Assembly (NCBI GenBank): GCA_030584065.1 | Contig: CP129489.1 | Span: 1,777,497 to 1,841,496, forward strand | Source of the DNA: Flavobacteriales bacterium | GTDB taxonomy: Bacteria > Bacteroidota > Bacteroidia > Flavobacteriales_F > PHOS-HE28 | Direction: 5' to 3' | Length of the DNA: 64,000 nt | Part shown: positions 3,775-48,985 of the stretch, piece after piece | How the letters are laid out: each line of letters begins with the position of its first letter | How positions within the stretch are numbered: position 1 is the stretch's first letter | The notes under the pieces: model-generated | Seen by the model: only the letters and a program-made list of their open reading frames with translations | Databases searched by the model: none | Told to the model about the DNA's origin: nothing | Made by a program: the position numbers and the translations under genes

Positions 3775-3783
3775 GGCGTTCGG

Positions 3784-4974: not shown

Positions 4975-4986
4975 GTCGGCAGCGGC

Positions 4987-6375: not shown

Positions 6376-6420
6376 ATGTATGAACGGAACGTTTCGCGGT
6401 ACGAACGCCGAAAATCCTTG

Positions 6421-27307: not shown

Positions 27308-27327
27308 GGCTCGCCGAGAAGCGTGAG

Positions 27328-28311: not shown

Positions 28312-29175
28312 CTACCGCGAAGTAGGGTTTCGGAACAATACCATTTCCTTGAACTGAGCTGAGTCTAGTTGGTTATCGACTTCTCTCTCATTGTTCGCTG
28401 CAGTTGGTCCTCTCCAAACAGGAGATAGTCGCCAATTAATGACCCCGTTCCTTATACTATTCAGCACTGTTTCGGTCCATTCTGGGGAATAGGCGCAACC
28501 TGGCGGTGTGCTAGGTAAACTCATTGCATGAACAATCACAAATTCTAATCCTTTGTTAAACCTCTTTATGCATTGTTTCCACCACTTAGTTTTCACTGAA
28601 TGCTGAAGATGTGTATCATTCTCCATATAACCGAAAAGCTCCTCCTCGAAAATCTGGCAGAGTTTATCCATATTCTTAATTTCAGCATCCCTTAAGTAAC
28701 CCTCAGATTGAAATGGTGCATCAGCAGGAAGAGAATTGATGAACGCCTCTACGAACACATTCCAAGATTGGTCCGTAAGTCCGTGGTTTCTCCAATTTTC
28801 ACGATAGTGTCCAAGCTCGTCAAGCTGTGAGGTTACTCTTCCAATTATACGGAGCTTGGCTTCCGACCGACTAATACCCTCCCATGCAAGAGACTCACTA
28901 GCCTCGGCGCCAAAGCGGCGCTGCGCGTTTGTGAGTTCATCTTCGCTAATTGCAGAGTACTTTAATGCCTTATGTGTATACTGGTACTTATTCTGTGTGA
29001 ATTCATCATGTGCATTTGCAACAACTTCTAGAAAATCCTCATGATTTGGCCCTTTAAACACAGTAACTGGAACTGGTTGATTGGGCCGAGCGATGAGGTA
29101 AGCGCACAATCGATGATTGCCATCAAATACTTTTAACTGACCATCCGAGTATCGGCATAGAATAGGCGAAAGCAA
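28312..29175 (-). CDS. ParB/Srx-superfamily (DGQHR/DUF262-like) domain protein; no ATG start, in frame with the upstream HNH ORF
   Basis: ...SDGQLKVFDGNHRLCAYLIARPNQ... (D-G-x-H-R motif). Track start is a TTG. The 45 codons upstream, up to the HNH stop, contain no stop. Lower GC than the flanks. Confidence 0.55.
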   Translation of the reverse strand: MLSPILCRYSDGQLKVFDGNHRLCAYLIARPNQPVPVTVFKGPNHEDFLEVVANAHDEFTQNKYQYTHKALKYSAISEDELTNAQRRFGAEASESLAWEGISRSEAKLRIIGRVTSQLDELGHYRENWRNHGLTDQSWNVFVEAFINSLPADAPFQSEGYLRDAEIKNMDKLCQIFEEELFGYMENDTHLQHSVKTKWWKQCIKRFNKGLEFVIVHAMSLPSTPPGCAYSPEWTETVLNSIRNGVINWRLSPVWRGPTAANNEREVDNQLDSAQFKEMVLFRNPTSR

Positions 29176-29310
29176 TGGATTAGATCTCAGGTGCCATGCT
29201 AGGTTGATGACCTTGCGAACATCCGCTGCGCGTGTCTGTACTTGCCTGTCTACCCATAGCAGGGCTGGAGGAACAACAGTTGAAAATGAAGTCCATCTTT
29301 TATTGGTGAA

Positions 29311-29772
29311 CTATTGATGCATGACAGGATACTCCCTGTCTTGAAAGGTGGCTATATGTCGTTGATCATCCCATACAATATGCGCCTTGTACTCTGCAGC
29401 ATCAGGTGATCTCCCCGGAAGAAGGTCGTCTGAGAATCTTGTATTGGAGGCTTTGCGATGTATTTTAATATACTCAATCCATTCCTGTCCAGTGTACTTA
29501 TTGCCCTTCCCCTTGTGACAGTTCCTTCTTGCGGCAGTATCATATCCATCTTCAAAACAGGAAACTCCATCCCTTGCTGCATGAACAGGGTATTGATTGG
29601 CAACAAGGTCTGCTTGACGATCTCCGACTAATCCTTGGGCTAGCCAATGATCGAACTGGATATCTCCGAAATGTGCATATCCGTCGAAGTTTGAATGTGG
29701 TAAGCCCAAGCCGTCGCACACGTAGCATCGTGGCTTCTGCTCAAGTCTGCGCTCCTTCTCTGCTCGCGTCAT
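29311..29772 (-). CDS. HNH endonuclease domain protein
   Basis: CYVCDG...QFDHWLAQG...N...CHKGKGNK (CxxC...DH...N...CHxxK). Ends with a TAG at 29311-29313 in the same frame as the downstream ParB-like ORF. Confidence 0.7.
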   Translation of the reverse strand: MTRAEKERRLEQKPRCYVCDGLGLPHSNFDGYAHFGDIQFDHWLAQGLVGDRQADLVANQYPVHAARDGVSCFEDGYDTAARRNCHKGKGNKYTGQEWIEYIKIHRKASNTRFSDDLLPGRSPDAAEYKAHIVWDDQRHIATFQDREYPVMHQ

Positions 29773-29791
29773 GGCTTTGTTTCACTTATCG

Positions 29792-29890
29792 TTACATATT
29801 CCTCCGGTACTGCCCCCCCACCTCGAACATCGCTTGCGTCAACCGCCCTAGCGAGCAGTACTTCGTCGCCTCCATCAGCACCGCGAATCC
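29792..29890 (-). repeat. icmF 3'-terminus copy D (last ~33 codons plus stop), direct repeat
   Basis: ttacatattcctccggtactgccccc... encodes ...[31 protein letters not shown]; compare the real icmF end at 43246. Confidence 0.8.
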
Positions 29891-30044
29891 CGCTCCGGCA
29901 TCCGTAGGCCTCGTACCTCGGCCACGGTCGCTACGGCGGGACTTCGCGCTGCTTAGCATGGTGGTCATCACAAGTCGATCAAGGGCACAACGTAGACCCG
30001 GACGTGCGCATCCACGGTAACGATGTACGTATCGAGCAGCAGCT

Positions 30045-30260
30045 TCATTCCATGTACTCCTTGAAGTCATCCAAGGGTGCATCGAAGTCGTCCGGCACCG
30101 TCACCATGCCCTTGGCCAAGCCGGGCACCGGCGTCTTGCGCTTCTCCTGCGGCTCATTGCCCTGCCGGCGACGCATCAGGAACTCGATGAAGTCGAGCAC
30201 CTGCTGGCGAACATCCTCCGGGAGGGAGGATAGCTGGATGTAGTTGTGCGCCTTGGCCAT
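30045..30260 (-). CDS. DUF2281-family antitoxin (orphan)
   Basis: MAKAHNYIQLSSLPEDVRQQVLDFIEFLMRRRQ...; no toxin gene downstream. Confidence 0.6.
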   Translation of the reverse strand: MAKAHNYIQLSSLPEDVRQQVLDFIEFLMRRRQGNEPQEKRKTPVPGLAKGMVTVPDDFDAPLDDFKEYME

Positions 30261-30281
30261 GACACGAAGATAAGCCCGGAG

Positions 30282-30395
30282 CGGGTCCGGTCACATGTTC
30301 CTCCGGTTCTGACCACCTACCTCGAACAACCTGTCCCGCCTTAGCGGATCGCTTGCGTCAACTGCCCCAGCGAGCAGTCCGTCGTCGCCTTCATC
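30282..30395 (-). repeat. icmF 3'-terminus copy E (degenerate)
   Basis: tcacatgttcctccggttctgaccacctacctcgaaca...cgcttgcgtcaactgccccagcgagcagtccgtcgtcgccttcatcagcac. Confidence 0.7.
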
Positions 30396-30420
30396 AGCAC
30401 GGAGCAGTTGACGCCGATGA

Positions 30421-30861
30421 TCATTTCAAGAACTCGTCCGTGAAGTTCCGCGCGCTCAGTATCCGTGTGTGTCCATAGCTCCGCATCGAGAGCAGGTCGT
30501 CATCGCCGGTGATCAGCAGATCAGCCTTCCCCTTCTTCGCCATCAGCAGCAGATAGTCATCCTTGGGGTCGCGGGAGAGGGGAGCCTGGCCGGTGGACCG
30601 CACCTCCACGGATTCCCCAGCTTCCGCCAGGGCGAGGATCAGTTGATGGGCGAACTCTACAGGGAAATGCTTGCGGAACCTCGCTCGTGCGGCCACATCC
30701 AGCAGCTCGGCCAGTAGTTGGGGGCTCACCAGCAGAACGAAGTCGCTGTGGCGCAAGGCAGCCACGAAGCCTCCCAGCCGCTTGCCGATCAGGAAGCTGA
30801 TGAGCACGTTGACGTCAACGACGACGCGCAGCGCGGCTCGCTTCCTTTTTGGCGGCGGCAT
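30421..30861 (-). CDS. PIN-domain toxin (putative toxin-antitoxin system toxin component, PIN family)
   Basis: VVDVNVLISFLIG...DDYLLLMAKKGKADLLITGDDDLL (the PIN acidic residues). Confidence 0.75.
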   Translation of the reverse strand: MPPPKRKRAALRVVVDVNVLISFLIGKRLGGFVAALRHSDFVLLVSPQLLAELLDVAARARFRKHFPVEFAHQLILALAEAGESVEVRSTGQAPLSRDPKDDYLLLMAKKGKADLLITGDDDLLSMRSYGHTRILSARNFTDEFLK

Positions 30862-31078
30862 AACGTTGGGCCCTTACGATATCCACCTCCTTGCGGATGG
30901 TCTCTTCATCGATGTCCACGCCCTTGAGCTTGGACATGAGTTCCTCCAGCCGGTCGAGCGCGCGTTCCCGCTCCAAGGCCTTGACCAGGGCCGCCTTCTT
31001 TTTCTCAGGCAATTGCTTGGCCAGCTCCACCACCTGGTCGGGGGTGAGATCGATACGGAATCCGCGGTCGAATGACAT
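30815..31078 (-). CDS. cognate antitoxin of the PIN toxin (small coiled-coil/RHH-like protein)
   Basis: MSFDRGFRIDLTPDQVVELAKQLPEKKKAALVKALERERALDRLEEL...; overlaps the PIN ORF start. Confidence 0.5.
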   Translation of the reverse strand: MSFDRGFRIDLTPDQVVELAKQLPEKKKAALVKALERERALDRLEELMSKLKGVDIDEETIRKEVDIVRAQRYAAAKKEASRAARRR

Positions 31079-31104
31079 GACCCAAAGATAAGCGATGCCC
31101 GGCC

Positions 31105-31215
31105 TTACATGTTCCTTCTGTACTGCCCACCCACCTCGAATCCCGCTCGTATGCCCGTACGCCTCGTTCCTCGGCAACGGTCATAACGGCGGGACTTCGC
31201 GCTGCTCAGCATACG
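31105..31215 (-). repeat. icmF 3'-terminus copy F (internally deleted version of copy D)
   Basis: ttacatgttccttctgtactgcccacccacctcgaa, then a post-divergence segment shared with copy D (...cggcgggacttcgcgctgct.agcat...). Confidence 0.7.
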
Positions 31216-31737
31216 CCTCATCACATATTACGTCGGTACTGTCCACCGACCTCAAACATAGCGGCGGTGAGCTGCCCCAGCGAACAATACTTCGTCGCCT
31301 CCATCAGCACCGCGAACATATTCTGGTTCCTGATCGCCGCCTGCTGAAGATCCTTGATCGCCTTGGCCGCCTCTGCCGAGTATGCCTGCTTCAAGTTCTC
31401 GACGGTGGCGATCTGCGCCTCCTTCTCCTCCTCGGTGGCGCGGATCACCTCCTTGGGCAGGATGGTGGGCGAGCCCTTGCTGCTGAGGAAGGTGTTCACG
31501 CCGATGATGGGGTATTCGCCGGTGTGCTTCAACGTTTCGTAGTAGAGGCTTTCCTCCTGGATGCGGCTGCGCTGGTACATGGTCTCCATGGCGCCCAGCA
31601 CGCCGCCGCGCTCGGTGATGCGATCGAACTCGGCCAAGACGGCCTCCTCCACCAGGTCGGTGAGCTCTTCGATGATGAAGCTGCCTTGCAGCGGGTTCTC
31701 GTTCTTGGCCAGGCCGAGCTCCTTGTTGATGATGAGC

Positions 31738-31930
31738 TCTTGGGTACCACACCGCACCCCGTTCCGGCGCCATCCGCCTTCGGCGGCCCCTTCGGGCGGG
31801 CGCGCTCGTCCGGCCATGCTGCGTTGCTCGTCGGTCGGCTACCTCGTGGTAGCCTCCCTTCCTCGCGCCTTGCCTGGCCGAACGATCATCGCCCGTGGCA
31901 TCCGTTCGGGGCACGGCGTGGTACCCTGTG
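31738..31930. repeat. MITE-like ~190-bp insert 1 (terminal inverted repeats GGGTACCAC / GTGGTACCC; core GCTACCTCGTGGTAGCCTC...CTGGCCGAACGATC...TGGCATC)
   Basis: Present in copy C between 'gatgatgagct' and 'ggccatggcgcgg'; absent from the intact icmF at 43730-43800. Confidence 0.65.
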
Positions 31931-32185
31931 GCCATGGCGCGGCGCACGCTTTCCTCGGTGCCTGAGCCTGCCCCGGCCTCCGAGCCGGGGTGGTGATGGC
32001 CTCGTCGTAGGCGTTGGTGTGCAGGCTGTTGCAGTTGTCGTAGATGGCGTAGAGCGCCTGCAACGTGGTGCGGATGTCGTTGAAGTCGATCTCCTGCGCG
32101 TGGAGGCTGCGGCCGCTGGTCTGGATGTGGTACTTCAGCATCTGGCTGCGCTCGTCGGCGCCGTAGCGGTGCTTGAGCGCCTTGG

Positions 32186-32382
32186 CCCGTTGGGTGCCAC
32201 GAAGTCCACCGAGCAGCGCCACTGCGGTGTAGCCGCTGCCCTTCGGGTGAGCGCCGCTCATTCGCCCATACTTCGTTGCTTCCTCAGTCAGCTACCTATG
32301 GGTAGCCTCTCTTCGTCGCGCCTCGTCTGGCCGAACGATCGTCACTCATGGCATCTGCCCGGCGAACTCCGAGGCACCCCGG
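32186..32382. repeat. MITE-like ~195-bp insert 2, same family as insert 1
   Basis: ...GCTACCTATGGGTAGCCTCTCTTCGTCGCGCCTCGTCTGGCCGAACGATCGTCACTCATGGCATCTGCCCGG...; absent from the intact icmF at 43985-44000. Confidence 0.65.
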
Positions 32383-32942
32383 CGGCGCGCCACGCGGCCC
32401 ATCACGGCGTACTCGGGGTCCATGCCGTTGCTGAAGAAGAAGCTCAGGTTGGGCGCGAAGGCGTTGATGTCCATGCCCCGGCTCAGGTAGTACTCCACGT
32501 AGGTGAAGCCGTTGGCCAAGGTGAAGGCAAGCTGGCTGATGGGGTTGGCGCCGGCCTCCGCGATGTGGTAGCCGCTGATGCTGACGCTGTAGAAGTTGCG
32601 GACCTTCTTGTCGATGAAGTATTGCTGCACATCGCCCATCAAGCGCAACGCGAACCTGCCTGTCCGGTAGGCAGGCTCGGTGCTGAAGATCGTTGTTCTG
32701 CGCCTGGTGGTTATGCCCGCCCTGAGCTTGTCGAAGGGTTGGGCGTGCCCCCTCGCAAAAGCCTCGGGGTCGCGTGCTTCGCTTTAGCCGGACTTGTCAG
32801 GGCCAGCATCCACGGCGCTGCGGGGTCCTCCTTCGTCGGCCTCCTCGCTGCTCGTGGTTGCAAGGCCCTTCCAGCGCCGGGCTGCCGCTTCGCCCGCTCA
32901 CGCAGATCCATTGTACCACGTTGAACGTGTACTTTTGTCCCA

Positions 32943-33405: not shown

Positions 33406-36400
33406 ATGATCGACCGGATCATCAAGTTCTCCATCCACAACAAGGCCATCATCGGGCTGTTCACGCTCGTGCTGGTGCTTTACGGGGCGTACTCGCTCAC
33501 GCAATTGCCGATCGATGCGGTACCCGACATCACCAACAACCAGGTGCAGGTGATCACCACCACGCCTACGCTGGCCGCGCAGGAGGTGGAACAGTTCGTT
33601 ACCGCGCCCATCGAGCGGGCCATGGCCAGCCTGCCCGATCTGGTGGAGATCCGCTCCATCAGCCGCTTCGGGCTAAGTCTTGTGACCATCGTATTCGATG
33701 AGGACGTGGACGTGTACTTCGCCCGCACCTTGGTGGACCAGCGCCTGGGCGAGGCCGCCGCACTGATACCGCCCGGGGTGGGCACACCGACCATGGCCCC
33801 GGTAAGCACCGGGTTGGGCGAGGTGTACCAATACGTGCTGCACCCCAAGGAAGGGTACGAGGGCACCTTCAGCCCCAGCGAGCTGCGCACCATCCAGGAA
33901 TGGATCGTAGTGCGGCAGCTGTTGGGCACACCCGGTGTGGCCGAGGTGAACAGCTACGGCGGCGAGGTGAAGCAGTACGAGGTGAGCGTGGACCCCAAGC
34001 GCTTGCAAAGCATGGGCGTCACCATCGGTGAGCTACTGCTCGCGTTGGAGAGCAACAACGAGAACACCGGCGGCGCCTACATCGAGAAACGGCCCAACAG
34101 CTACAGCATCCGGGGCGAAGGACTGCTGCGCACGCTGGACGACATCCGCAAGGTGGTGGTGAAGATCCCGCCCGGCGGTGTGCCGCTCCTGGTGGGCGAT
34201 GTGGCCGAGGTGGGCTTCGGTGCGGCCCCGCGCTACGGTGCGCTCACCCGCAATGGCGAAGGCGAAGCGGTGGGCGGCACGGTGATGATGCTGAAGGGTG
34301 GCAACAGCGCCGAAGTGGTGAAGGCTATTGAAGCGCGCATACCGAACGTGCAGAAGGCCCTGCCGGAAGGGCTGATGATCGAACCCTATCTGGTGCGCAG
34401 CGAACTGGTGGGGCGGGCCATCGGCACGGTGAAGACGAACCTGATCGAGGGCGCGTTGATCGTGATCTTCGTGCTGGTGCTCTTTCTAGGAAATTGGCGC
34501 GCGGGCCTCATCGTGGCCTCGGTGATCCCACTGTGCATGCTCTTCGCCATCATCCTCATGAACGCCTTCGGCGTCAGCGGCAATTTGATGTCGCTTGGTG
34601 CCATCGATTTCGGATTGATCGTGGACGGCGCCGTGATCATCGTGGAGGCCACCCTGCACCACCTGCATGCGCGCTTCAAGGGAAGGATCCTTACCCGCGA
34701 GGAGATGGACCGCGAGGTTTTCGTGAGCGCCAGCAAGATCCGGACGAGCGCGGCCTTCGGCGAGATCATCATCCTGATCGTGTACATCCCCATCCTCACA
34801 CTGGTGGGCATCGAGGGCAAGATGTTCCGCCCCATGGCCATCACCGTCAGCTTCGCCATCCTGGGTGCCCTGTTGCTCTCGCTCACCTATGTGCCCATGA
34901 TGAGCGCGCTGGTGCTGCCGCGCAACACGGCGCACAAACCCAACTTCAGCGACCGCATGATGGACCGTTTCCAGAAGTGGTACGATCCCATCATCGGCTT
35001 CGCCTTGCGCAACCGGATCAAGACCGTGGGTGTGGCCGTGGCGCTCTTCATCAGCTCGGTCTTCCTGTTCGCACGCATGGGCGGCGAGTTCATTCCCACC
35101 TTGGAAGAGGGCGACTTCGCCTTCCACAGCATCCTGCCGCAGGGCGCATCGCTCAGCCAGAGCATCGCCAACAACGCCAAGGTGGAGAAGATCCTGCTGC
35201 AATTCCCGGAGGTGAAGCAGGTGGTGGGACGCACCGGCAGCGCCGAGATCCCCACGGACCCCATGCCCCCCGAAGCCACGGACCTCATGATCATCTTGAA
35301 GGACAAGGACGAATGGACCACCGCGCACGACCGCGAGGCTTTGCAGGACACCATGCTGCAAGCCTTGAGGCAGGTACCCGGCGTGTTCTACGAAGCCACC
35401 CAACCCATCCAGATGCGCTTCAACGAATTGATGACCGGCATACGGCAGGACGTGGCCGTGAAGATCTACGGTGAGAACATGGACACCCTCGCGGTGATCG
35501 CGAACAAGGTGGCGGCGATCATCGGCGAAGTGCAAGGTGCGGGTGAACCGCAGGTGGAAAAGGTGGTGGGCCTGCCACAGATCACCATCACCTACGATCG
35601 TGCACGGGTAGCGCAGTACGGCCTCAACATCCGCGAACTGAACCGCACCGTGCGCACGGCCTTCGCGGGCGAGGCCACCGGCGTCATCTACGAGAACGAG
35701 CGCCGCTTCGATCTGGTGGTGCGCCTCGGTGACCAACAGCGGCAGAGCATCGACGATGTGCGCACCCTCTTCGTGGCGCTGCCCGGTGGCGGACAGATCC
35801 AGTTGCAGCAGGTGGCCGATGTGTCCTTGACACCCGGCCCGGCCCAGATCAGCCGGGAGGATGCCAAGCGCCGCATCGCCGTGGGCGTGAACATCCGTGG
35901 CCGTGACGTGGAAAGCTTCGTGGAAGAGCTCCAAGGCCGCATCGATGCCGAAGTGCCAATGCCCGCGGCCTACTACTACACCTTCGGCGGCACCTTCGAG
36001 AACCTGCAGGCAGCTAGCAAACGCCTGATGCTGGCGGTGCCCATCGCGCTGGCCCTCATCTTCCTGCTGCTCTTCTTCACCTTCAACAGCGTGAAGCGCG
36101 CCCTGCTGATCTACACCGCCATCCCCATGAGCGCCATCGGCGGTGTGCTTGCGCTCATGGCGCGCGGCATGCCCTTCAGCATCAGCGCGGGCGTGGGCTT
36201 CATCGCGCTCTTCGGCGTGGCGGTGCTCAACGGCATCGTCCTCATCGCCACCTTCGACCAACTGGAAAAGGAAGGCATCAGCGACCTGAAGGAGCGCGTG
36301 TTGAAAGGTACCCGCACACGGCTGCGTCCCGTGCTGATGACGGCGGCGGTGGCCTCGCTCGGTTTCCTGCCCATGGCCTTGAGCGGCAACGCGGGCGCGG

Positions 36401-37728
36401 AAGTGCAACGCCCCCTGGCCACGGTGGTGATCGGTGGCCTCATCACCGCCACGGCCCTCACCCTCATGGTGCTGCCGGTGCTTTACCTGCTCTTCATGGG
36501 CGGAGGCAGGAGGCGCAACGATGCCAATGGCGGCAAGGCGAACGCACCGCTGATCGTCGCGACCGTGCTGTTGATCATGATCGGCGGCACCAGCAGCGCA
36601 CAGGAACCGATGCCGATGGACACGGCGATCGCACGCGCCTTGCGCACCCATCCGAGCATGACCGCTGCGGAACTGCGTGTGCAGGAACAGGATGCCCTGC
36701 GTGGCACGGCCTTCGGGCTGCAGCCGCTCAACGCGCAATTCTCCCATGGCCAGACCCAGGGGCCGTATCCCAAGGACATTATCCTGGAAGCCAATACCGG
36801 GTTCGCATTTCCCACCACCATTGCCCGACGCGCGGCCTACCTGAAGGAAAGCCTGCACCTTGCGGAGAACGAAAAGCTGAACACGGCGGCCTACGTGAAG
36901 GAGAGCGCGGGAGGGGCCTACCTGCAATGGGCCATGGGCCTTGAACAGGTGCGTATCCTGCAACAGCTGGACAGCGCGTACGCATCCATGGCGGCCTTCG
37001 CGCTGCAGCGCTTCGAGCTCGGTGAGACCGGCCGCTTGGAAAGCACCAGTGCGCAAAGCCGCGCCGAGCAGGTGAAGGTGCGCTTGCGCCAGGCACAGGC
37101 TGATCTGGTGGCCTACCAGGTGGAAGTAGAACGCTGGACGGGCCCGCTCAGTGGTGCCGTGCCGGTGCCCGAGGAATTGCTCAACACCGCACGAGCGCCG
37201 GATCCCGGCGGCGGCAACGACCCGCTCCTGCTCTCCTTGCAGCAGCGCACGCAGGTGGCCGAGGCCGAATGGAAACTGCAACGCAGCCAATGGGCACCCA
37301 GCCTGCAGGGCGGCGGCTTCTACCAGACCTTCGATGGCACGTCGCCCTTTTCGGGCTTCCTCATCGGTGCTTCGATCCCCCTGCCCGGCAGCGGCCAGGG
37401 CGGTCGCACCTCGGCGGCACGTTTGCGCAGCGAGATCGCCGCGCAGGAACTGGAAGCCGCACGCCGACAGCGCAGCAGCGAGCGCGCCACCACGCAGGCG
37501 CAGCTCACTCAATTGCGCGAGAGCCTCGCCTTCTATGAAAGCACCGGTGCCGCGCTGGGTGCTACCCTGCGCGACGATGCCCTGCGTGCCTATCGCGCGG
37601 GCGAAGCCGACTACTTCCAATTCACTCAAGGCATCGAGCAGGCCTTTCAACTCAACGCCGAGCACCTGCGCGTGCGTTACGAGCTCGCACTTACCGTCCT
37701 CCACCTCCGTGCCCTCAATGGGCTCTAA
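33406..37728 (+). CDS. czcA: CzcA/CusA-family heavy-metal RND pump fused in frame to a TolC/CzcC-type outer-membrane factor (1440 aa, no stop between them)
   Basis: Residues 1-~1030 are a typical HME-RND (12 TM helices, two large loops). Then ...VLPVLYLLFMGGGRRRNDANGGKANAPLIVATVLLIMIGGTSSAQEP... (a signal-peptide-like segment) and ~400 aa of OMF repeats. Confidence 0.8.
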   Translation: MIDRIIKFSIHNKAIIGLFTLVLVLYGAYSLTQLPIDAVPDITNNQVQVITTTPTLAAQEVEQFVTAPIERAMASLPDLVEIRSISRFGLSLVTIVFDEDVDVYFARTLVDQRLGEAAALIPPGVGTPTMAPVSTGLGEVYQYVLHPKEGYEGTFSPSELRTIQEWIVVRQLLGTPGVAEVNSYGGEVKQYEVSVDPKRLQSMGVTIGELLLALESNNENTGGAYIEKRPNSYSIRGEGLLRTLDDIRKVVVKIPPGGVPLLVGDVAEVGFGAAPRYGALTRNGEGEAVGGTVMMLKGGNSAEVVKAIEARIPNVQKALPEGLMIEPYLVRSELVGRAIGTVKTNLIEGALIVIFVLVLFLGNWRAGLIVASVIPLCMLFAIILMNAFGVSGNLMSLGAIDFGLIVDGAVIIVEATLHHLHARFKGRILTREEMDREVFVSASKIRTSAAFGEIIILIVYIPILTLVGIEGKMFRPMAITVSFAILGALLLSLTYVPMMSALVLPRNTAHKPNFSDRMMDRFQKWYDPIIGFALRNRIKTVGVAVALFISSVFLFARMGGEFIPTLEEGDFAFHSILPQGASLSQSIANNAKVEKILLQFPEVKQVVGRTGSAEIPTDPMPPEATDLMIILKDKDEWTTAHDREALQDTMLQALRQVPGVFYEATQPIQMRFNELMTGIRQDVAVKIYGENMDTLAVIANKVAAIIGEVQGAGEPQVEKVVGLPQITITYDRARVAQYGLNIRELNRTVRTAFAGEATGVIYENERRFDLVVRLGDQQRQSIDDVRTLFVALPGGGQIQLQQVADVSLTPGPAQISREDAKRRIAVGVNIRGRDVESFVEELQGRIDAEVPMPAAYYYTFGGTFENLQAASKRLMLAVPIALALIFLLLFFTFNSVKRALLIYTAIPMSAIGGVLALMARGMPFSISAGVGFIALFGVAVLNGIVLIATFDQLEKEGISDLKERVLKGTRTRLRPVLMTAAVASLGFLPMALSGNAGAEVQRPLATVVIGGLITATALTLMVLPVLYLLFMGGGRRRNDANGGKANAPLIVATVLLIMIGGTSSAQEPMPMDTAIARALRTHPSMTAAELRVQEQDALRGTAFGLQPLNAQFSHGQTQGPYPKDIILEANTGFAFPTTIARRAAYLKESLHLAENEKLNTAAYVKESAGGAYLQWAMGLEQVRILQQLDSAYASMAAFALQRFELGETGRLESTSAQSRAEQVKVRLRQAQADLVAYQVEVERWTGPLSGAVPVPEELLNTARAPDPGGGNDPLLLSLQQRTQVAEAEWKLQRSQWAPSLQGGGFYQTFDGTSPFSGFLIGASIPLPGSGQGGRTSAARLRSEIAAQELEAARRQRSSERATTQAQLTQLRESLAFYESTGAALGATLRDDALRAYRAGEADYFQFTQGIEQAFQLNAEHLRVRYELALTVLHLRALNGL

Positions 37729-37740
37729 GACCGCATAGAC

Positions 37741-39120
37741 ATGAAAACGCAACCGATCAACAGCGCTCTTCAGCGCATGCCGAATACGCTCTTTCTGCTC
37801 CTGCTCACCATCGCACTGGCCGCCTGTGGCGGTGGCGCGGCCTCCGGCGAAGAAGAAGGCCATGGCCACGGCGAAGAGGAGGGCCACGGCGGTGGGAGCA
37901 CCGTCACCGTTTCGCCGCAACAATTCGCCGCCATCGAGGGCAAGCTTGGCAAGGTGGAGATGAAGGACCTCACCACCGCCCTCAAGGCCGTCGGCTTTTT
38001 GAAAGTGCCGCCGCAGAACGTCGCCGACATCACCGTGGCCATGGGAGGCACCGTGCGCGAAGTGCTGGTGCAGGAAGGCGACCATGTGAACAAGGGGCAG
38101 GTGCTCGCTACGGTCACCGACCCTTCGATCATCCAACTGCAACGCGACTACCTCGATGCGAAAGCACGACTGGTGTACGCCGAAACGGAATTGGAACGCC
38201 AGACCGAACTGGCCCGCGCCAACGTGAGCGCGCAGAAGACCCTGCAACAGGTCACGGCGGAACACGCCTCCTTGCGGGCCAGCGTGAACGCCCATGCCGA
38301 GCAGTTGCGCCTGATCAACATCGACCCCGAGAAGCTCACTGCCAATGCACTGCGCTCAGCCGCGGGCATCGTAAGCCCCATCGATGGCACCGTGGCGCAC
38401 ATCGCGGTGAACGTGGGAAGCAAGGTGAGCAACGATGCCACAATGTTCCGCGTGGTGAACAACAGCAAGCTCCACGTGGACCTCTTCCTCTACGAACAGG
38501 ACATCGCCTCCGTGAAGGTGGGCCAGACCATCGACCTCAGCCTCACCAACCTGCCGGGCAAGAACTACACGGCCGTGGTCTTCGCCATCGGCAGTGCCTT
38601 CGAACGCGAGACGAAGACGATCCCGGTGCACGCGGAGATCACCGGCGACAAAGTGGGCCTGATCGACGGCATGGGCGTTACCGGGCGCATCAGCGTAGGC
38701 AACGCCACCACCACCGCCGTGCTCACCGAGGCCATCGTGAACATGGAAGGCAAGGACTACGTGTTCATCAGGACCGAAGGTGAAGAGGAGCATGGGCACG
38801 GGCATGATGAAGAGCCCGCGCACAAGGAGGAACCGGCGCACAAACACACCGAAGGGGAAGCACACGATCACGCGAAGGAGAACAAGGCAACCCATGCACA
38901 AGGTGAGGTGCACGAACATGACCATAGCGATGAACATGCGCACGAGGCCGCAACCGGCAGCATGAGCTTCCAACGCATCGAAGTGAAGCGTGGAACGACC
39001 GATGGCGCGTACACAGCAGTAACCTTCCTGCAACCGGTGGACCCGGACGCCGAAGTGGTGACCGGTGGCGCCTACTACCTGATCGCGATGATGAACACGA
39101 GTGAAGGACACGAGCATTAA
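37741..39120 (+). CDS. czcB: efflux RND periplasmic adaptor (CzcB/HlyD family) with His-rich N- and C-terminal tails
   Basis: Lipoyl/beta-barrel MFP fold; EEGHGHGEEEGHGGG and GHGHDEEPAHKEEPAHKHTEGEAHDHAK...VHEHDHSDEHAHE metal-binding tracts. Confidence 0.85.
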   Translation: MKTQPINSALQRMPNTLFLLLLTIALAACGGGAASGEEEGHGHGEEEGHGGGSTVTVSPQQFAAIEGKLGKVEMKDLTTALKAVGFLKVPPQNVADITVAMGGTVREVLVQEGDHVNKGQVLATVTDPSIIQLQRDYLDAKARLVYAETELERQTELARANVSAQKTLQQVTAEHASLRASVNAHAEQLRLINIDPEKLTANALRSAAGIVSPIDGTVAHIAVNVGSKVSNDATMFRVVNNSKLHVDLFLYEQDIASVKVGQTIDLSLTNLPGKNYTAVVFAIGSAFERETKTIPVHAEITGDKVGLIDGMGVTGRISVGNATTTAVLTEAIVNMEGKDYVFIRTEGEEEHGHGHDEEPAHKEEPAHKHTEGEAHDHAKENKATHAQGEVHEHDHSDEHAHEAATGSMSFQRIEVKRGTTDGAYTAVTFLQPVDPDAEVVTGGAYYLIAMMNTSEGHEH

Positions 39121-39124
39121 GATC

Positions 39125-41005
<1,881 letters not shown>

Positions 41006-41038
41006 GGGTTCTGGAACATAACTTGCGTGGCTACGAAC

Positions 41039-41419
41039 ATGAAACAGCTGACCACCCTGCTCTTTGCCTTTTGCACACTGGGCCTATCTGCACAAACCGG
41101 TGCAGTTTCCCCGCCCGCCAAAGGCAAGAAGACCGCCACCATCGCCATCCAGAGCACTGGCATCTGCGATATGTGCGAGAAGACCATCGAGACCGAACTC
41201 GTCTATACCAAGGGCGTGAAGAAGGTGGATGTGGACCTCAGCACCGCTGCCGTGAGCGTGACCTACGATCCGCGCAAGACCGACGCGGACAAATTGCGTG
41301 CAGCACTCACCAAGCTGGGGTACTCCGCTGATGGTACACCGGGTAATGCCTCAGCATTTGCCAAGTTGCCCCAATGCTGCCAGAATGAAGGCTGCGGCAA
41401 GTTGCCGGTGAAGCAATGA
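41039..41419 (+). CDS. secreted HMA-domain (MerP-like) metal-binding protein with variant GICDMCE metal site and C-terminal CCQNEGCG
   Basis: Signal peptide MKQLTTLLFAFCTLGLSAQ; ferredoxin-like HMA fold ...IAIQSTGICDMCEKTIETEL... Confidence 0.65.
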   Translation: MKQLTTLLFAFCTLGLSAQTGAVSPPAKGKKTATIAIQSTGICDMCEKTIETELVYTKGVKKVDVDLSTAAVSVTYDPRKTDADKLRAALTKLGYSADGTPGNASAFAKLPQCCQNEGCGKLPVKQ

Positions 41420-41787
41420 AGCTTCATTGGGCCATGCCGACGCAGGTGCGGCCATACTACGGAGCAGAGTTGCGCAAGAGCGAAGAGGCTCGCACGCTCG
41501 GCGATCTGCAACTCGAATGGCACCATCTCGAGCGGGCCCATATTCTCGGCCAGCGTTGGCCCTTGGAGCACAACGCGGTGCATTGGCGCATGCTGAAGTT
41601 CGGGTTCCGTACCAAGAACATGCGCGAGATCATCGGACAGTTGCCGCGTCTGGTCTTCGGTGGGGTGAAGAGCTTCGCGGGCACGGTGCCGATCGGGAAT
41701 ACGGGCGGAGCGAATGTGCCGGCGCTGAAGCCGCTGGCGTTACCAGACGACCTAGCAGCGATACTCAATGACACCTTTGCCGTGTGA
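41416..41787 (+). CDS. DUF3703 domain protein (common next to heavy-metal efflux genes)
   Basis: MKLHWAMPTQ...LGDLQLEWHHLERAHILGQ...; 4-nt overlap with the preceding gene. Confidence 0.6.
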   Translation: MKLHWAMPTQVRPYYGAELRKSEEARTLGDLQLEWHHLERAHILGQRWPLEHNAVHWRMLKFGFRTKNMREIIGQLPRLVFGGVKSFAGTVPIGNTGGANVPALKPLALPDDLAAILNDTFAV

Positions 41788-41842: not shown

Positions 41843-42312
41843 TCACATATTCCGCCGATACTGCCCCCCCACCTCAAACATTGCAGCAGTTAACTGACCC
41901 AGGCTGCAATACTTGGTCGCTTCCATCAAGACCGCAAACATGTTCTCGTTCTTGATCGCAGCCTCTTGAAGCTTCCGAGTGCGGCTTTCCCTTCAGCCTC
42001 ATAAGCCTTCTGCACGTTCTCCACGGTGCGGATCTGCGCTTCCTTCTCCTCTTCCGTAGCACGGATCACTTCCTTCGGGAGAACGGTCGGCGATCCTTTG
42101 CTCGACAAGAACGTGTTCACCCCAATGATCGGATACTCACCCGTGTGCTTCAGGGTCTCGTAGTACAAGCTCTCTTCCTGGATCCTTGAGCGCTGGTACA
42201 TGGTCTCCATGGCGCCCAGCACGCCGCCGCGCTCGGTGATGCGGTCGAACTCGCTGAGCACGGCCTCTTCCACCAGGTCGGTGAGCTCCTCGATGATGAA
42301 GCTGCCCTCGCG
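41843..42312 (-). pseudogene. icmF 3' copy B (~470 bp, frameshifted)
   Basis: Track ORFs 41926..42273 and 41874..42062 give ...[93 protein letters not shown]..., then the frame is lost. Confidence 0.8.
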
Positions 42313-42328
42313 CGTTCCCTTGCTTTGA

Positions 42329-43249
42329 TCACACTACGATGTACCGCTCTTGCAAATACGTTAGCCACTTATCGAAATCGGGTGATGGCGAATGCTCCTG
42401 GCAGATATCAAGAAATCGTTCATAAGTAAGCGTCATGAACCTGCCGTCCGGTGCGGCTAGGAAGGACTTGTAGCCTGTGCAAGCGTCGTCCATGTGCTTA
42501 TTGCCTTTCGGGAACAAGGTGAGCGAGGTAGCGTGGGCAAATCGCTCAGGATGCTTGAGCAGAATGCTCTCCGCGAGTAGGTGGTTCCGCCAGATCTGCC
42601 GGTAATCGTCTGTGATCACCTGTGTTTCGCATCCCGGCTTGAATATCCCACAGGCAGCCATGACCTTGAAGTAAATAGAGGCTCGGTCATTCACAGTTCG
42701 CTCTTCCGTGGAGCCATGCTTCAATTTGTAGGCGCGTTCGGTGTACTTCACCTCAATCCCGATAAGCCCCCGCCGACCTTCCTTATCAGTGCTTTCGGTA
42801 TATGCATCGAAAGATGTACCATCATTCAAATACTCTGAACGTGGCGACGGCGCAAACTCGATGCGAATCGGATCGACAGTGCTCAAGGGTTCTCCAAGCA
42901 AGTCTGAGAAAACCTGCAGGCGATACTTATCGTCCAAGTTCAGGGGCCAGAGCATGTTCAACGGAATGTGCTCGCTCCGAAGCATGTTCCCATAGACCTT
43001 CTCGCTCGTTATCGGATAACGCTTCCTAGCGGCTTCCAAGATGCCTAACTCGGGATAGAAGTTGCATCCTGCATCCGCGTCGCATGGCGTTAGGAAGTTG
43101 CCGTAGTTCTTCGTCTTACTCCATCCGTGTGGCAATTTCAACCGCTCTGCACGGAATCTTGATTGATGAAGGCGCGCCTTCTTCAGGAATTCGGACTTAT
43201 CGAGTCCGTCATCCCCGCTGTATTGTGGTCCGATACCGTAACTCATCAC
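42329..43249 (-). CDS. hypothetical PD-(D/E)XK-like nuclease-fold protein (cargo of the cassette nearest icmF)
   Basis: ...[29 protein letters not shown]... (D...E-x-K). AT-richer than the flanks. Its start overlaps the icmF stop. Confidence 0.4.
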
Positions 43250-46200
43250 ATATTCCTTCTGTACTGTCCGCCGACTTCGAACATGGCCGCAGTGAGTTGA
43301 CCGAGACTACAGTACTTGGTGGCTTCCATCAACACTTCGAACATGTTCTCATTCTTGATCGCAGCTTGCTGGAGGTCTTTGATGGCTTTGGCCGCCTCAT
43401 CCGCATAAGCAGTTCGGAGATTCTCGACGGTCGCTATCTGGGCTTCTTTCTCCTCTTCCGTAGCTCTGATGACCTCTTTCGGCAAGATCGTCGGTGATCC
43501 TTTGCTCGACAGGAAGGTATTCACCCCGATGATGGGATACTCACCCGTGTGCTTCAAGGTCTCGTAGTACAAGCTTTCCTCCTGGATGCGGCTGCGCTGG
43601 TACATCGTTTCCATCGCACCCAAGACCCCACCACGTTCCGTGATCCGATCGAACTCCGTCAACACCGCTTCCTCGACGAGATCCGTCAATTCTTCGATGA
43701 TGAAGCTGCCCTGCAACGGGTTCTCGTTCTTGGCCAGGCCGAGCTCGCGGTTGATGATGAGCTGGATGGCCATGGCGCGGCGCACGCTTTCCTCGGTGGG
43801 CGTGGTGATGGCCTCGTCGTAGGCGTTGGTGTGCAGGCTGTTGCAGTTGTCGTAGATGGCGTACAGCGCCTGCAACGTGGTGCGGATGTCGTTGAAGTCG
43901 ATCTCCTGCGCGTGCAGGCTGCGGCCGCTGGTCTGGATGTGGTACTTGAGCATCTGGCTGCGCTCGTCGGCGCCGTAGCGGTGCTTGAGCGCCTTGGCCC
44001 AGAGGCGACGCGCCACGCGGCCCATCACGGCGTACTCGGGGTCCATCCCGTTGCTGAAGAAGAAGCTCAGGTTGGGCGCGAAGGCGTTGATGTCCATGCC
44101 CCGGCTGAGGTAGTACTCCACGTAGGTGAAGCCGTTGGCCAGCGTGAACGCGAGCTGCGAAATGGGGTTGGCGCCGGCCTCCGCGATGTGGTAGCCGCTG
44201 ATGCTGACGCTGTAGAAGTTGCGGACCTTTTGGTCGATGAAGTACTGCTGAACGTCGCCCATCAAACGCAGCGCGAACTCGGTGCTGAAGATGCAGGTGT
44301 TCTGCGCCTGGTCCTCTTTGAGGATGTCGGCCTGCACGGTGCCGCGGACGCTCTGCAGGGTCTCCGCCTTGATCTTCTCGTAGACGTCTTTCGGGAGGAC
44401 TTGGTCGCCGGTGATGCCGAGCAACAACAATCCTAGGCCATCATTGCCCGCAGGTATTTCTCCGTGGTAGCGCGGTCGAGGTGAATGGTGAATGGGAGTT
44501 GGTGAATGGGAAGAGCCCTTCCCTCCATTCGCCATTGACCATTCGCCATTCGCCTTCTCCAACTTCTCCCAGCGCTCCTTGATCTTCTTCTCCACCTCGG
44601 CCTCCAACCCGTGCTCACGGATGTACTTCTCACAGTTCTGGTCGATCGCGGCGTTCATGAAGAAGCCGAGGAGCATGGGCGCGGGACCGTTGATGGTCAT
44701 GCTCACGCTGGTGTTGGGCGCGGTGAGGTCGAAGCCGCTGTAGAGCTTCTTGGCATCGTCCAGGCAGCAGATGCTCACACCGCTGTTGCCCACCTTGCCG
44801 TAGATGTCGGGCCTGCGACCGGGATCGTGGCCGTAGAGCGTCACGCTGTCGAACGCGGTGCTGAGGCGCTTGGCGGGCATGCCCTGGCTCACGTAGTGGA
44901 AGCGCTTGTTGGTGCGCTCCGGACCGCCCTCGCCGGCGAACATGCGCGCGGGGTCCTCGCCCTGGCGCTTGAAGGGATAGATGCCCGCGGTGTAGGGGTA
45001 CGACCCCGGGGTGTTCTCCTGCATGGCCCAGCGCACCTTGTCGCCCCAGCTGCGGAACTTGGGCAGCGCCACCTTCGGGATCTTCAGGTGACTGAGGCTC
45101 TCGGTGTGGTTGGGCACCTTGATCTCCTTGCCGCGGACGGAGTAGGTGTAGAATTCACCGGAGTATTTCTCCTCCTCCTTCTTCCAGTTCTGGAGCATGG
45201 ACCAGAGGTGGGGGTCGAGGTCTTTGCGGATGTCCTCGAACTTCTTCACCAGCTCAGTAACGAGTGGTGAGTGGCGAGTGGCGAGTGTGCCGTCGGAGGC
45301 AGCACTCGCCACTCGCGACTCGTCACTCACCACTCCGTGAAGGACGTCAGGCCCGCCGAGCGTGAGGATCGATGAGTACAGACCATAGAGTTGGTCCGCA
45401 ATACGTGCCTGTTTCGTCACCCGATCATCATACCTCCGGTTGTTCTCGCTGATCTCGCTGAGGTAGCGGCTCTTGGCGGGGGGAATGATCCACACCTTCT
45501 CGCTCATCTCGTCCATCCCGTGGAAGGTGCTCTTGAAGTCCACGCCGGTCTTCTCGGCGATCTTGGTCATCAAGCGGGCGTAGAGCGTGTTGGTGCCGGG
45601 ATCGTTGAACTGGCTGGCGATGGTGCCCACCACGGGGAGCGTGTCATCGTCGGCGTCCCACAGCTGGTGGTTGCGCTTATACTGCTTCTTCACGTCGCGC
45701 AGGGCATCGAGGGCGCCGCGCTTGTCGAACTTGTTGATGGCCACCACGTCGGCGAAGTCGAGCATGTCGATCTTCTCCAGCTGCGTGGCCGCGCCGAACT
45801 CCGGCGTCATGATGTAGAGGCTCACATCGCTGTGGTCCAGGATCTCGGTATCGCTCTGGCCGATGCCGCTCGTCTCCAGGATGATCAGGTCGAAGCCCGC
45901 GGCCTTCAGCACGCTCACGGCCTCCTTCACGTGCTTGCTGAGGGCCAGGTTGCTCTGGCGCGTGGCGAGGCTGCGCATGTATACACGCTCGCCGCGGATG
46001 CTGTTCATGCGGATGCGGTCGCCCAGCAGCGCGCCGCCGGTCTTGCGCTTGCTCGGGTCCACGCTGATCACGCCGATGGTCTTGCCTTGGTCCGGGCTTG
46101 ACCCGGACTGGTCCAGGATGAAGCGGCGGATGAGCTCGTCCACCATGGACGATTTACCCGCGCCGCCCGTACCCGTGATGCCCAGCACGGGAGCCTTGTT

Positions 46201-46803
46201 CGCCTCGGCCTGCTTGTGGATCTCGTCGGCGATCTTGGCGAACACCTCGGGATGGTTCTCGGCCGTGCTGATCAACTTGGCGATGGCCGGCCAGTTCTGC
46301 GGCGTCAGCTTCTTCGCCTCGCCGTTCACCTTATCGCTCAGGTCGAAGTCGGCCTTCTCCAGCATGTCGTTGATCATGCCCTGCAGGCCCATCGCGCGAC
46401 CGTCATCCGGATGGTACAGGCGCGTGATGCCGTACGCGTGCAGCTCCTCGATCTCGCTGGGCAGGATCGTCCCGCCGCCACCGCCGAAGATCTTGATGTG
46501 CCCCGCGCCCTTCTCCTTCAGCAGGTCGAACATGTACTTGAAGTACTCCACGTGCCCGCCCTGGTAGCTGGTCATGGCAATGGCGTGGGCATCCTCCTGG
46601 ATCGCGGTGTTCACCACGTCCTCCACGCTGCGGTCGTGCCCCAGGTGGATCACCTCGGCGCCGGTGCTCTGGATGATCCGCCGCATGATGTTGATGGCGG
46701 CATCGTGGCCGTCGAACAACGAGGCGGCGGTGACCACGCGGATCTTGTTCTTGGGCTGGTAGGGAGGAGCTTGCACGAACGTTGACATGTACGGAGGCCG
46801 CAA
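43246..46803 (-). CDS. icmF: fused isobutyryl-CoA mutase (B12-binding domain, MeaB-like G-protein, mutase barrel), with two in-frame palindromic insertions
   Basis: [11 protein letters not shown]12 DxHxxG; [13 protein letters not shown]-loop; methylmalonyl-CoA-mutase-like C-terminal half ending ...[11 protein letters not shown]. 1185 aa against ~1090 typical. Confidence 0.9.
44479..44551. repeat. in-frame palindromic insertion 1 in icmF (arms of GAATGG-type short repeats around GGGAAGAGCCCTTCCC)
   Basis: ggtgaatggtgaatgggagttggtgaatgggaagagcccttccctccattcgccattgaccattcgccattcgcc; encodes the odd segment ...[26 protein letters not shown]... Confidence 0.6.
45262..45334. repeat. in-frame palindromic insertion 2 in icmF (arms of GAGTGGC-type short repeats)
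   Basis: gagtggtgagtggcgagtggcgagtgtgccgtcggaggcagcactcgccactcgcgactcgtcactcaccactc; encodes ...[24 protein letters not shown]... Confidence 0.6.
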
Positions 46804-47254: not shown

Positions 47255-47287
47255 ACCGCAAGCCAGGACCTATTCCGCTTGGCTCGA

Positions 47288-47945: not shown

Positions 47946-48739
47946 TCGAAGCACTCAGATTCAGCTATGAATCTGAGTATTGCCGTAGCGGTGCACCAGA
48001 TTGGGCTTTCCAAGGTGTCGCACCAGCGATTCCATACATCGGTGAGCGCTTCCTTGAATCTCCTATAAAGGCATTGATCTATGCCAGTGCGGAGAATCTC
48101 GCCAGTGACACTGGGCATCTAGAAGGACTTCGTACGCAAGATGTGAGGCAGCAAATGGTACGCTCATATGGACTGAAGCCACGGGCGAATCAAGACCAGA
48201 ACGTGCATATCGAGCCCATCAACAATGGTGCGCTGCTCAAGGTGGCTCGCCATATTCTGTCCTACCACCCGAGCGATGAAGCGCTCTTAAAGCATTCATC
48301 GAAGTTTTTTCTTGAACAAGTAGCGGTCGCTAATCCAGGCAAGTTCAGCATCGACCCATCGAAGCACAAACAGAAGGTTAACCTGGACTACGCAAGGGAC
48401 TGGAAGAAATTCAAGGACCAGATCGCCTACGTTCAGGCAGACTTGGAGCACCTAACACCTCATTGGCTGATCCTTCCAGCAACTATCCATCGCTCACTCG
48501 TTCGAGCCGGGCTGAAGTCTGCTCTTGAACGCATTCCAACCATCGTATCCATCCAACAAGTTCAACAACGAGCTATCGTCCGGAAGCATGGGAATAGAGT
48601 TCCCAAAGACGACACCATAGAGTTGCCCGGTGGGTACGGAGACTGGAAGGCCCCTCACTATTCCAACACATACATCCGTTGGATGATTGAGAATGCTGGC
48701 AGATTCGCCATGCAAGAGAAAGGCCGAATAACTCTATAG
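47918..48739 (+). CDS. hypothetical protein
   Basis: 273-aa ORF in an AT-rich (~50% GC) insert; no motif recognised. Confidence 0.4.
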
Positions 48740-48757
48740 CGCAATGTTAACTACATC

Positions 48758-48985
48758 CTCCACGCCGCGGTCGTGCCCCAGAGCCTGCCCCGGCCTTGAG
48801 CCGGGGTGGATCACCTCGGCGCCGGTGCTCTGGATGATCCGCCGCATGATGTTGATGGCGGCATCGTGGCCATCGAACAACGAGGCGGCAGTGACGACAC
48901 GGATCTTGTGTTTCGGGACGTAGGGCGGGGCTTGGACGAAGGTGGACATGCGTGAACGCCGGAGGACTGATCGCGGCTTGCCGCG
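48758..48985 (-). repeat. copy of the icmF 5' end (promoter-proximal ~25 bp plus codons 1-~64) carrying a 25-bp hairpin insert
   Basis: Encodes [48 protein letters not shown].... Upstream 'cgcggcttgccgcgaaggtaccggt' is identical to 46826-46850. Confidence 0.8.

Follow-up and report, generated by a model that had tools for sequence, protein, structure and literature searches.

How does a lone nuclease gene come to start within the stop codon of icmF, with a second copy of the icmF 3′ end on its far side, and what might it do there? The locus lies in a 64,000-nucleotide stretch of a Flavobacteriales genome (positions 1,777,497 to 1,841,496 of contig CP129489.1, assembly GCA_030584065.1), referred to here as the window. 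An earlier note on this DNA had singled out an open reading frame (ORF) beside icmF as a PD-(D/E)XK-like gene without a partner methyltransferase, and proposed that it was a solitary restriction or abortive-infection nuclease delivered by an integrating element. We find that the ORF is predicted to encode a catalytically intact, stand-alone PD-(D/E)XK endonuclease of the Pfam family PDDEXK_13, and that it is the sole cargo of a 1.4-kb cassette consisting of icmF codons ~1031-1185, the nuclease gene and a short linker. The features on which this account depends, all on the minus strand, are as follows.

43714..46788, minus strand: resident icmF body (ORF open to 46803, likely ATG at 46788)
43691..43716, minus strand: left junction or crossover block, ...CAGGGCAGC TTCATCATCGAAGA, with the motif at 43704; boundary between resident icmF and imported DNA
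43246..43713, minus strand: 3′ end of the live icmF that came in as a replacement together with the nuclease gene, codons ~1031-1185 plus stop, recognized from composition at third codon positions and from differences by codon position
42329..43246, minus strand: nuclease ORF, PDDEXK_13, 305 residues plus TGA, from the ATG at 43246-43244
42310..42328, minus strand: 19-nt linker from the nuclease stop to the right repeat, holding a degenerate copy of GAGAACCCGCTGCAGGGCAGC
41846..42309, minus strand: displaced former icmF 3′ end, codons 1031-1185, a fragment with one frameshift (tblastn and alignment)

The nuclease and its gene

The upstream gene, 1185 codons long, is the icmF of a fused isobutyryl-CoA mutase, whose B12-binding, MeaB GTPase and MM_CoA_mutase domains were found in the orthologue at locus L001, a metagenome contig; it should not be confused with the type VI secretion gene that is also called icmF. 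The longest reading of the nuclease ORF (42329..43249, minus strand) has 306 codons from a GTG, the length given by the earlier note. Because homologues begin M-S-Y, we place the start at the ATG at 43246-43244, which leaves the ORF itself standing and shortens the product to 305 residues. The A of this ATG is also the A of the icmF TGA (43248-43246), so that the junction reads ...AAT ATG TGA TG AGT... and the nuclease ORF abuts the stop of the live gene with an overlap of 1 nt, as had been proposed. No sigma-70 promoter or terminator was detected between the two genes on the minus strand, by a scan that does not model Bacteroidota promoters.

The region is indeed AT-richer than its flanks, with a GC content of 0.51-0.53 over 42400-43600 against 0.60-0.65 on each side. 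The nuclease ORF has a GC content of 0.519 and a third-position GC content (GC3) of 0.63, compared with 0.627 and 0.90 for the icmF body. The low-GC tract does not end with the nuclease ORF; it extends into the last 465 nt of the live icmF, where GC3 is 0.70.

The protein matched PF20796 (PDDEXK_13) with 219 bits (E 1.2e-64) over profile positions 5-289 of 290. Membership was taken as a score above the curated gathering threshold of 27 bits together with near-complete profile coverage, and in these terms the protein is an ordinary member of the family, from which we found no difference. The related family PF22558 (REase-ARP) was also matched (E 4e-22). An AlphaFold2 (AF2) model built from 30 homologues had a predicted local distance difference test score (pLDDT) of 94.6 and a predicted template-modelling score of 0.91. 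It contains the alpha-beta-beta-beta-alpha-beta core of the PD-(D/E)XK superfamily and resembled only PD-(D/E)XK nucleases, with no sign of a non-nuclease fold. The alignment of the 30 homologues shows no variation at E92, H93, E165, K167, E170, R216, Q217 and R220, and at least 90% of the sequences have D147. The D...E-V-K arrangement seen in the earlier note is thus real, and D147, E165-V-K167 and E92 make up the catalytic motif D...(D/E)xK. The family-wide motifs E...D...ExK...RQxWRN and the family's length of about 300 residues are also present; residues 1-90 are conserved and carry no domain assignment.

Named relatives are lacking. No PADLOC-DB 2.0 model was matched at E values up to 10 (0 families), and there was no match in NCBIfam, in PHROGs or in a sequence search of the PDB, nor any named homologue. 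PF20796 has no characterized member and no solved structure, and a literature search for PF20796 and REase-ARP gave no paper. In Pfam, neither the nuclease nor ten longer fused relatives contained an SRA, EVE/PUA, Mrr-N winged-helix or other sensor domain.

Some PDDEXK_13 proteins (P0292, P0304, P0338 and P0388) are 700-850 residues long and combine a second D...(I/V)ELK nuclease-like module with N- or C-terminal domains that have no Pfam assignment. A sequence search of the PDB gave no match for the extension domains, and a single-sequence AF2 model of P0292 reached a pLDDT of only 31. An EVE-like modified-base reader in these fused proteins, a lead suggested by sequence motifs, found no support in Pfam or PDB sequence searches.

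The gene-end cassette and its alleles

The icmF-end repeats that the earlier note saw on either side of the nuclease gene are present at 43246-43712 and 41843-42308, and align over 470 nt with 77% identity. The right-hand copy, the displaced one, gives two tblastn high-scoring pairs in different frames at 84-91% amino acid identity. It begins at the motif at 42300, which is the same motif at which the live gene switches on the left (43704). Compared with an older duplicate, the live icmF is 93-100% identical upstream of ~43767 and ~79% identical downstream of ~43720. GC3 is 0.82 and 0.87 in the older icmF-end copies at 41962-42309 and 31224-31688. Between the live end and the copy at 31224, 23% of nucleotides and 5% of residues differ, the differences falling 16/7/82 on the three codon positions. 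Since this divergence is mostly synonymous, both ends must have evolved as working gene ends in different lineages. The live icmF therefore received its last 465 nt together with the nuclease gene, a conclusion based on the GC3 values (0.63 and 0.70 against 0.90), the mostly synonymous divergence and the break in identity at the junction.

This break is clearest in a comparison of the window with L001, one of four other metagenome contigs (L001-L003 and L100) that carry an identical cassette. The two icmF bodies differ at 320/3076 positions (10.4%), and from 43713 down to 34000 only 20/9714 positions differ. Going downstream, a mismatch at 43716 is followed by no other until 42535. Identity thus switches at the junction, so the block must have been shared recently between two diverged backgrounds.

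The arrangement is older than this recent exchange. All five alleles with at least 64% identity to the window nuclease (100, 71, 70, 66 and 64%) lie on an icmF stop codon, which amounts to a stable linkage to one target gene, and the four that differ from the window have the same ATGTGATGAG join.

P0003: 71% identity to the window nuclease, on the icmF stop
P0004: 70% identity, on the icmF stop
P0006: 66% identity, on the icmF stop
P0007: 64% identity, on the icmF stop

In three alleles (100%, 70% and 64%) a linker of similar kind and a scrambled GAGAACCCGCTGCAGGGCAGC block lead up to the right junction, which falls at codon 1031-1033. L093 (the 70% allele) and L004/L005 (the 64% allele) share with the window the order of stop, ~12 nt, degenerate block and T[TC]CATCATCGA. 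Immediately 3′ of the junction the imported end in the window has been recoded extensively (ATTGACGGATCTCGTC vs GCTCACCGACCTGGTG), and the CTGCAGGG block 5′ of the junction is scrambled in all three right copies. The live copy in L093 has native-looking sequence on both sides of the junction. The icmF-end segments are mosaics of one another, evidence of frequent homologous exchange. Alleles with 61% identity or less (L007, L008 and L099) have no linkage to icmF.

Among the five icmF-linked alleles the ratio of nonsynonymous to synonymous substitution rates (dN/dS) is 0.07-0.13 and dS is saturated. Such strong purifying selection rules out a decaying gene. The nuclease gene is old and kept under purifying selection, and it travels together with a gene end as one unit. 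In L091 a newer 83-residue cassette has trimmed the nuclease's icmF handle to 25 codons, as would be expected if cassettes stack at the live end. We considered a homing signature common to the whole family and rejected it: duplicated gene ends, sought with tblastn and blastn at 87 loci, were found solely in the icmF-linked clade and at L053, a Bacteroidales locus described below.

Insertion of the cassette and role of the nuclease

In the explanation that we favour, to which as a whole (a gene-end cassette with a solitary nuclease, homology-driven insertion and a role in defence or conflict) we assign a probability of about 0.5, the cassette would have entered the resident icmF by a single reciprocal crossover in the conserved ~17-nt block GGCAGCTTCATCATCGA. 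The partners would be the resident gene and a circle of icmF codons 1031-1185, nuclease gene and linker. The live icmF would then end in imported sequence and stay functional, and its former end would be displaced downstream as a fragment; one reciprocal crossover thus explains both junctions at once. Insertion would be independent of the nuclease and most likely used host homologous recombination, since the same locus took cassettes with other cargo and other boundaries, the icmF 5′ end is duplicated as well, and no tyrosine or serine recombinase or integrase was found among the ORFs scanned between ~12 and 51 kb. Each cassette type would inherit its own boundary. Of the delivery by an integrating element that the earlier note had envisaged, the co-arrival of the nuclease with a replacement icmF end stands; with no integrase among the scanned ORFs, the pattern fits homology-driven insertion better. 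Given that there is no intergenic space and no promoter- or terminator-like site on this strand, the nuclease would be co-transcribed with icmF by read-through and translationally coupled to it.

The closest known arrangement is the insertion with long target duplication of restriction genes (Furuta, Abe and Kobayashi 2010, PMC2853133), in which lower-GC restriction genes lie at or in the 3′ end of a resident gene between direct repeats of up to ~420 bp, with no transposase or integrase. That study required an insert of <20 kb, a direct repeat of >30 bp, no mobility gene, and homologues of both restriction (R) and modification (M) genes. The window cassette, a 0.94-kb insert with a single ORF and a 465-nt repeat, agrees in size, repeat and absence of mobility genes; it departs in having a nuclease without a methyltransferase. 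It differs further in its stacked array and in its recurrence as diverged alleles. The published repeats are >90% identical and those of the window 77%, because here the left copy derives from an orthologous allele that was brought in and does not duplicate the target. A literature search on icmF integration sites returned nothing.

For the role of the nuclease we turned to the rest of its family. More than 1,500 clusters at 90% identity matched the protein at E below 1e-5, and 1,573 clusters at 50% identity were recovered in a profile search, with E below 1e-10 for 994. Almost all members are ~300 residues long, most are from Bacteroidota, and none is named. Their distribution is patchy (292 confirmed relatives among pattern matches in 185,579 species genomes) and they are nearly absent from viruses, with 2 matches in 2.9 M IMG/VR contigs, 3 weak ones in INPHARED and no PHROG. 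A metagenome scan for close relatives of the nuclease returned a single locus.

Neighbourhoods were sampled at 80 homologous loci from species-representative genomes, where 73 upstream and 70 downstream proteins (143 in all) were scanned. The neighbours span 103 Pfam families upstream and 72 downstream, none of them seen more than 3 times, and most are ordinary genes; the family occupies no fixed place in a syntenic core. When six neighbours per locus were clustered all against all, no conserved partner gene emerged, the largest group covering 7 loci, and no conserved small neighbour was seen across the 80 loci. About 10 of the 143 neighbours carry restriction-modification (R-M) or defence domains (Methylase_S, Eco57I, N6_Mtase, D12 methyltransferase, Schlafen/AlbA_2 and GmrSD_N), 7 are integrases or transposases, and just a handful have methyltransferase domains. 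PADLOC, run on the neighbours, reported solely redundant Type I S-subunit models, for 2 members. A SIR2-STAND gene adjoins the 71% allele, and distant plasmid homologues (~25% identity) lie beside DISARM drmC/TcmP or beside a McrBC-like group of DUF2357, AAA ATPase and methyltransferase. The gene is thus solitary and accessory, often in variable regions, and the defence-island signal is modest. In the window, too, the lack of a partner methyltransferase noted earlier holds locally: the nearest is the Dcm of an EcoRII/Vsr system ~17 kb away.

On this genomic context, our best guess is that the nuclease serves in defence or conflict, for example as a modification-dependent or otherwise conditionally active restriction enzyme selected as an accessory gene. 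A Type II R-M system would have an adjacent cognate methyltransferase, and the cassette has one gene; in being a solitary nuclease it matches the Type IV modification-dependent enzymes. Its likeness to the Type IV enzymes Mrr, MspJI and AspBHI is limited to the common core, as it has no recognizable SRA, EVE or winged-helix domain. Toxin-antitoxin (TA) modules in sister cassettes also count for a conflict context. The earlier proposal of a restriction or abortive-infection nuclease accordingly retains its accessory-gene and defence-island setting, and gains neither a PADLOC or NCBIfam match nor a conserved partner.

Several observations weigh against the favoured explanation. For the role, they are the absence of any PADLOC or NCBIfam match or named homologue, the absence of a detectable modification-reading or other sensor domain, the small share of defence-related neighbours (~7%), and the fact that the sparing of its own genome by a lone nuclease is left without an explanation. 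For the route, the homology segment spans 470 nt, yet the crossover would be confined to its first ~35 nt, and no more than 12 nt separate it from the point at which identity between the window and L001 breaks. Such precision would come more naturally from a site-specific cut or a recombinase than from RecA alone. Finally, no empty site, circular form or activity was observed.

The most interesting rival is a homing role. A homing-type selfish endonuclease would cut cassette-free icmF near codon 1031, and repair from a cassette-bearing allele would insert the replacement end together with the nuclease gene; the carried gene end would keep icmF functional, making the element a bacterial analogue of the mitochondrial homing-endonuclease ORFs that duplicate the C-terminus of atp6 or cob. 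The PD-(D/E)XK fold is accepted among homing endonucleases, as in I-Ssp6803I, which counts in its favour. The whole icmF-linked clade (64-100% identity, dS saturated) has stayed on the icmF stop codon, with the constant right junction in three alleles, and in the window the left breakpoint is also where the right copy starts; the recoding seen in the imported end (ATTGACGGATCTCGTC vs GCTCACCGACCTGGTG) and the scrambled CTGCAGGG block in all three right copies would also fit. In Endoconidiophora mitochondria, atp6 and cob are followed by free-standing homing-endonuclease ORFs with a C-terminal duplication of the host gene, so that such an ORF stands between a gene and a duplicated C-terminus in fungal mitogenomes (PMC6279837). 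The nuclease cassette shares this anatomy: gene, endonuclease ORF and displaced C-terminal fragment come in the same order, and the functional gene ends in sequence brought with the ORF. The fungal enzymes are of the GIY-YIG or LAGLIDADG type, whereas the window has a PD-(D/E)XK protein on a bacterial chromosome. Another homing-endonuclease ORF with a C-terminal duplication adjoins atp6 in Allomyces. The icmF locus differs, however, in accepting nuclease-free cargo: in the window and at L103, L105 and L106 the same locus holds cassettes that lack a nuclease and have other boundaries, so that insertion there does not depend on an endonuclease. Nor is the recoding expected of an immune allele consistent, as the live junction in L093 looks native on both sides. 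Neither the alleles at or below 61% identity nor most of the family show a link to icmF or to any duplicated gene end. Coinciding breakpoints would also result from one reciprocal crossover of a circle, or from conversion tracts that end together with the homology. We therefore regard homing as unlikely.

Two further explanations concern function. Distinctly unlikely, in our estimate, is an addiction or abortive-infection toxin, a latent nuclease restrained by an unlinked factor or by low coupled expression that stabilizes the array or kills infected cells. Sister cassettes with PIN_3/antitoxin and DUF2281 genes would suit it, as would HicAB at the icmF 5′ end in L001 and the homologue at L053, which sits in a repeat-bounded array with HigBA-like genes. 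A Type II system would have a small antitoxin next to the toxin, yet the overlap with the icmF stop on one side and the 19-nt linker on the other leave no room for one in the cassette, and the 80 loci provide no conserved small neighbour, their largest neighbour cluster being that of 7 loci. An ordinary passenger, meaning a housekeeping or repair-type nuclease or a currently useless gene caught by chance in a recombination hotspot, seems very unlikely to us. Metabolic and resistance cargo has entered the same hotspot and most neighbours of family members are ordinary genes, but the patchy accessory spread across species genomes, the foreign composition, the strong purifying selection and the want of a syntenic core position speak against it.

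Homology-driven insertion of a gene-end cassette, if correct, has consequences beyond this locus. We offer two extensions tentatively, and both are doubtful. An integrase-free cassette system may operate in this high-GC Flavobacteriales-type lineage, with the icmF replacement end as a homology handle and stacking at the live gene. More sharply, the icmF-linked PDDEXK_13 clade may itself be the active driver, a chromosomal homing endonuclease that carries a spare 3′ end instead of an intron or intein. If the nuclease targets icmF, its cassette would represent a novel means by which a homing element avoids harming the gene that hosts it. If instead it is a solitary restriction-type nuclease, it would represent a defence family missed by PADLOC-DB 2.0 (2023). 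The locus offers a clean, minimal, single-gene context for one member of PDDEXK_13, a family of ~1,570 clusters at 50% identity, and its anatomy suggests how small accessory genes may spread between related bacteria without a mobility gene, by way of a replacement gene end. What is unusual here is the recurrent gene-end cassette; the nuclease itself belongs to an unstudied family.

Other cargo and arrays at icmF

The nuclease cassette is the newest in a series. Downstream of the live icmF follow the nuclease gene, fragment 1031-1185, heavy-metal efflux genes, fragment 836-1185 and an 86-nt native flank; then come fragments 1173-1185, 1156-1185 and 1155-1185 with their respective cargo, and after them IS3 transposases and an EcoRII/Vsr/Dcm system.

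33406..41787, plus strand: older cassette cargo for heavy-metal efflux (CzcA-OEP fusion, HlyD-type adaptor, P-type ATPase, HMA and DUF3703, from Pfam)
31224..32696, minus strand: older displaced icmF fragment, codons 836-1185, split by two 99-nt structured elements
28312..31146, minus strand: three small cassettes with icmF ends of 13 to 31 codons (31108-31146, 30294-30403 and 29795-29887)
48737..48964, minus strand: second copy of the icmF 5′ end (codons 1-68), with a 1.9-kb low-GC insert (46804-48736) between it and the live gene

The left boundaries of these other window cassettes lie at codons 836, 1155, 1156 and 1173. The heavy-metal block is also present in L001, L103, L105 and L106, and from 42308 onwards the fragment at 41846..42309 runs collinear with the one ahead of the heavy-metal genes of L105. 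Among the small cassettes, fragment 1173-1185 is associated with an antitoxin-like ORF and a PIN_3 toxin, and fragment 1156-1185 with a DUF2281 antitoxin. Fragment 1155-1185 (cargo at 28312-29772) has a 153-residue Cys/His-rich ORF and a 287-residue ORF with a DGNHR motif and a weak ParB-like PHROG match (E 5e-4), which could be another nuclease-type pair. The 1.9-kb insert at the 5′ end has no Pfam matches; its equivalent in L001 is a HicA/HicB pair. With inserts on both the 5′ and 3′ sides and the gene intact, both ends of icmF evidently accept inserts. A search for integrases and transposases inside the island turned up only IS3-family rve transposases (26034-28227) and a Bro-N protein, and the Dcm/EcoRII-C endonuclease/Vsr system is complete at 22881-25908, beyond the transposases on the far side of the island.

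Related genomes fill the equivalent slot differently. Beside the live icmF, L105 has DUF2024, protoglobin and MarR genes, with the next fragment starting near codon 949, and L106 has an alpha/beta-hydrolase gene followed by a fragment from near codon 1045. The icmF C-terminal ORFs in L103, L105 and L106 are array fragments between varied cargo and not truncated assemblies. Public Bacteroidota assemblies contain great numbers of ORFs for just the last 140-260 residues of IcmF (P0121-P0240), and the annotation is often 'methylmalonyl-CoA mutase, partial'; they come from a listing of short icmF ORFs without their known full-length relatives, from which a ratio of fragments to full-length genes cannot be read. 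If our account of the cassettes is right, many of these partial ORFs would be scars of cassette insertion and not assembly or annotation noise.

Small cargos rich in TA and defence genes are also stacked at an anchor, newest nearest and with a repeat between them, in integron arrays, IS26 translocatable units and the tRNA- or tmRNA-anchored islands called tycheposons. The icmF array is like these in its one- to few-gene cargos, the newest beside the anchor. Its repeat differs, being the 3′ end of a housekeeping gene, 13 to 350 codons long, and not attC, and no IntI, attC, insertion sequence or integrase was found for the array over the scanned range.

Several smaller features of the array were recorded. 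The 86-nt flank after the native-type icmF stop (31140-31225) is repeated at 29902-29959, with 88% identity over 58 nt, ahead of a short icmF-end fragment; some cassettes therefore join flank and gene end in a circularly permuted order. The 99-nt GC-rich structured element (minimum free energy, MFE, -46) occurs at 31828-31926 and 32281-32379 in copies that are 77% identical, with no further copies in the window. At L004 (about 7400-7460), a locus in a Flavobacteriales metagenome-assembled genome (MAG), the element is found ahead of the icmF copy that lies upstream of the nuclease gene.

At L053 (positions 1-6589, Bacteroidales MAG contig DATGWQ010000175.1) a 42%-identical PDDEXK_13 homologue is one cassette among seven non-coding direct repeats of ~390 nt, spaced at ~1 kb, and other cassettes there include HigB/HigA-like genes. 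The 390-nt repeat had no Rfam or ARAGORN match as a tRNA, tmRNA or known RNA. This array may represent a different repeat-anchored cassette system.

Within the live icmF, between its GTPase and mutase parts, lies an in-frame, near-perfect GC-rich palindrome of 80 nt (45256-45335; MFE -57.5 kcal/mol). Identity to L001 falls to 0.69 in this stretch, with gaps, and the insertion is similar to the in-frame palindromic insertions of Rickettsia (RPEs).

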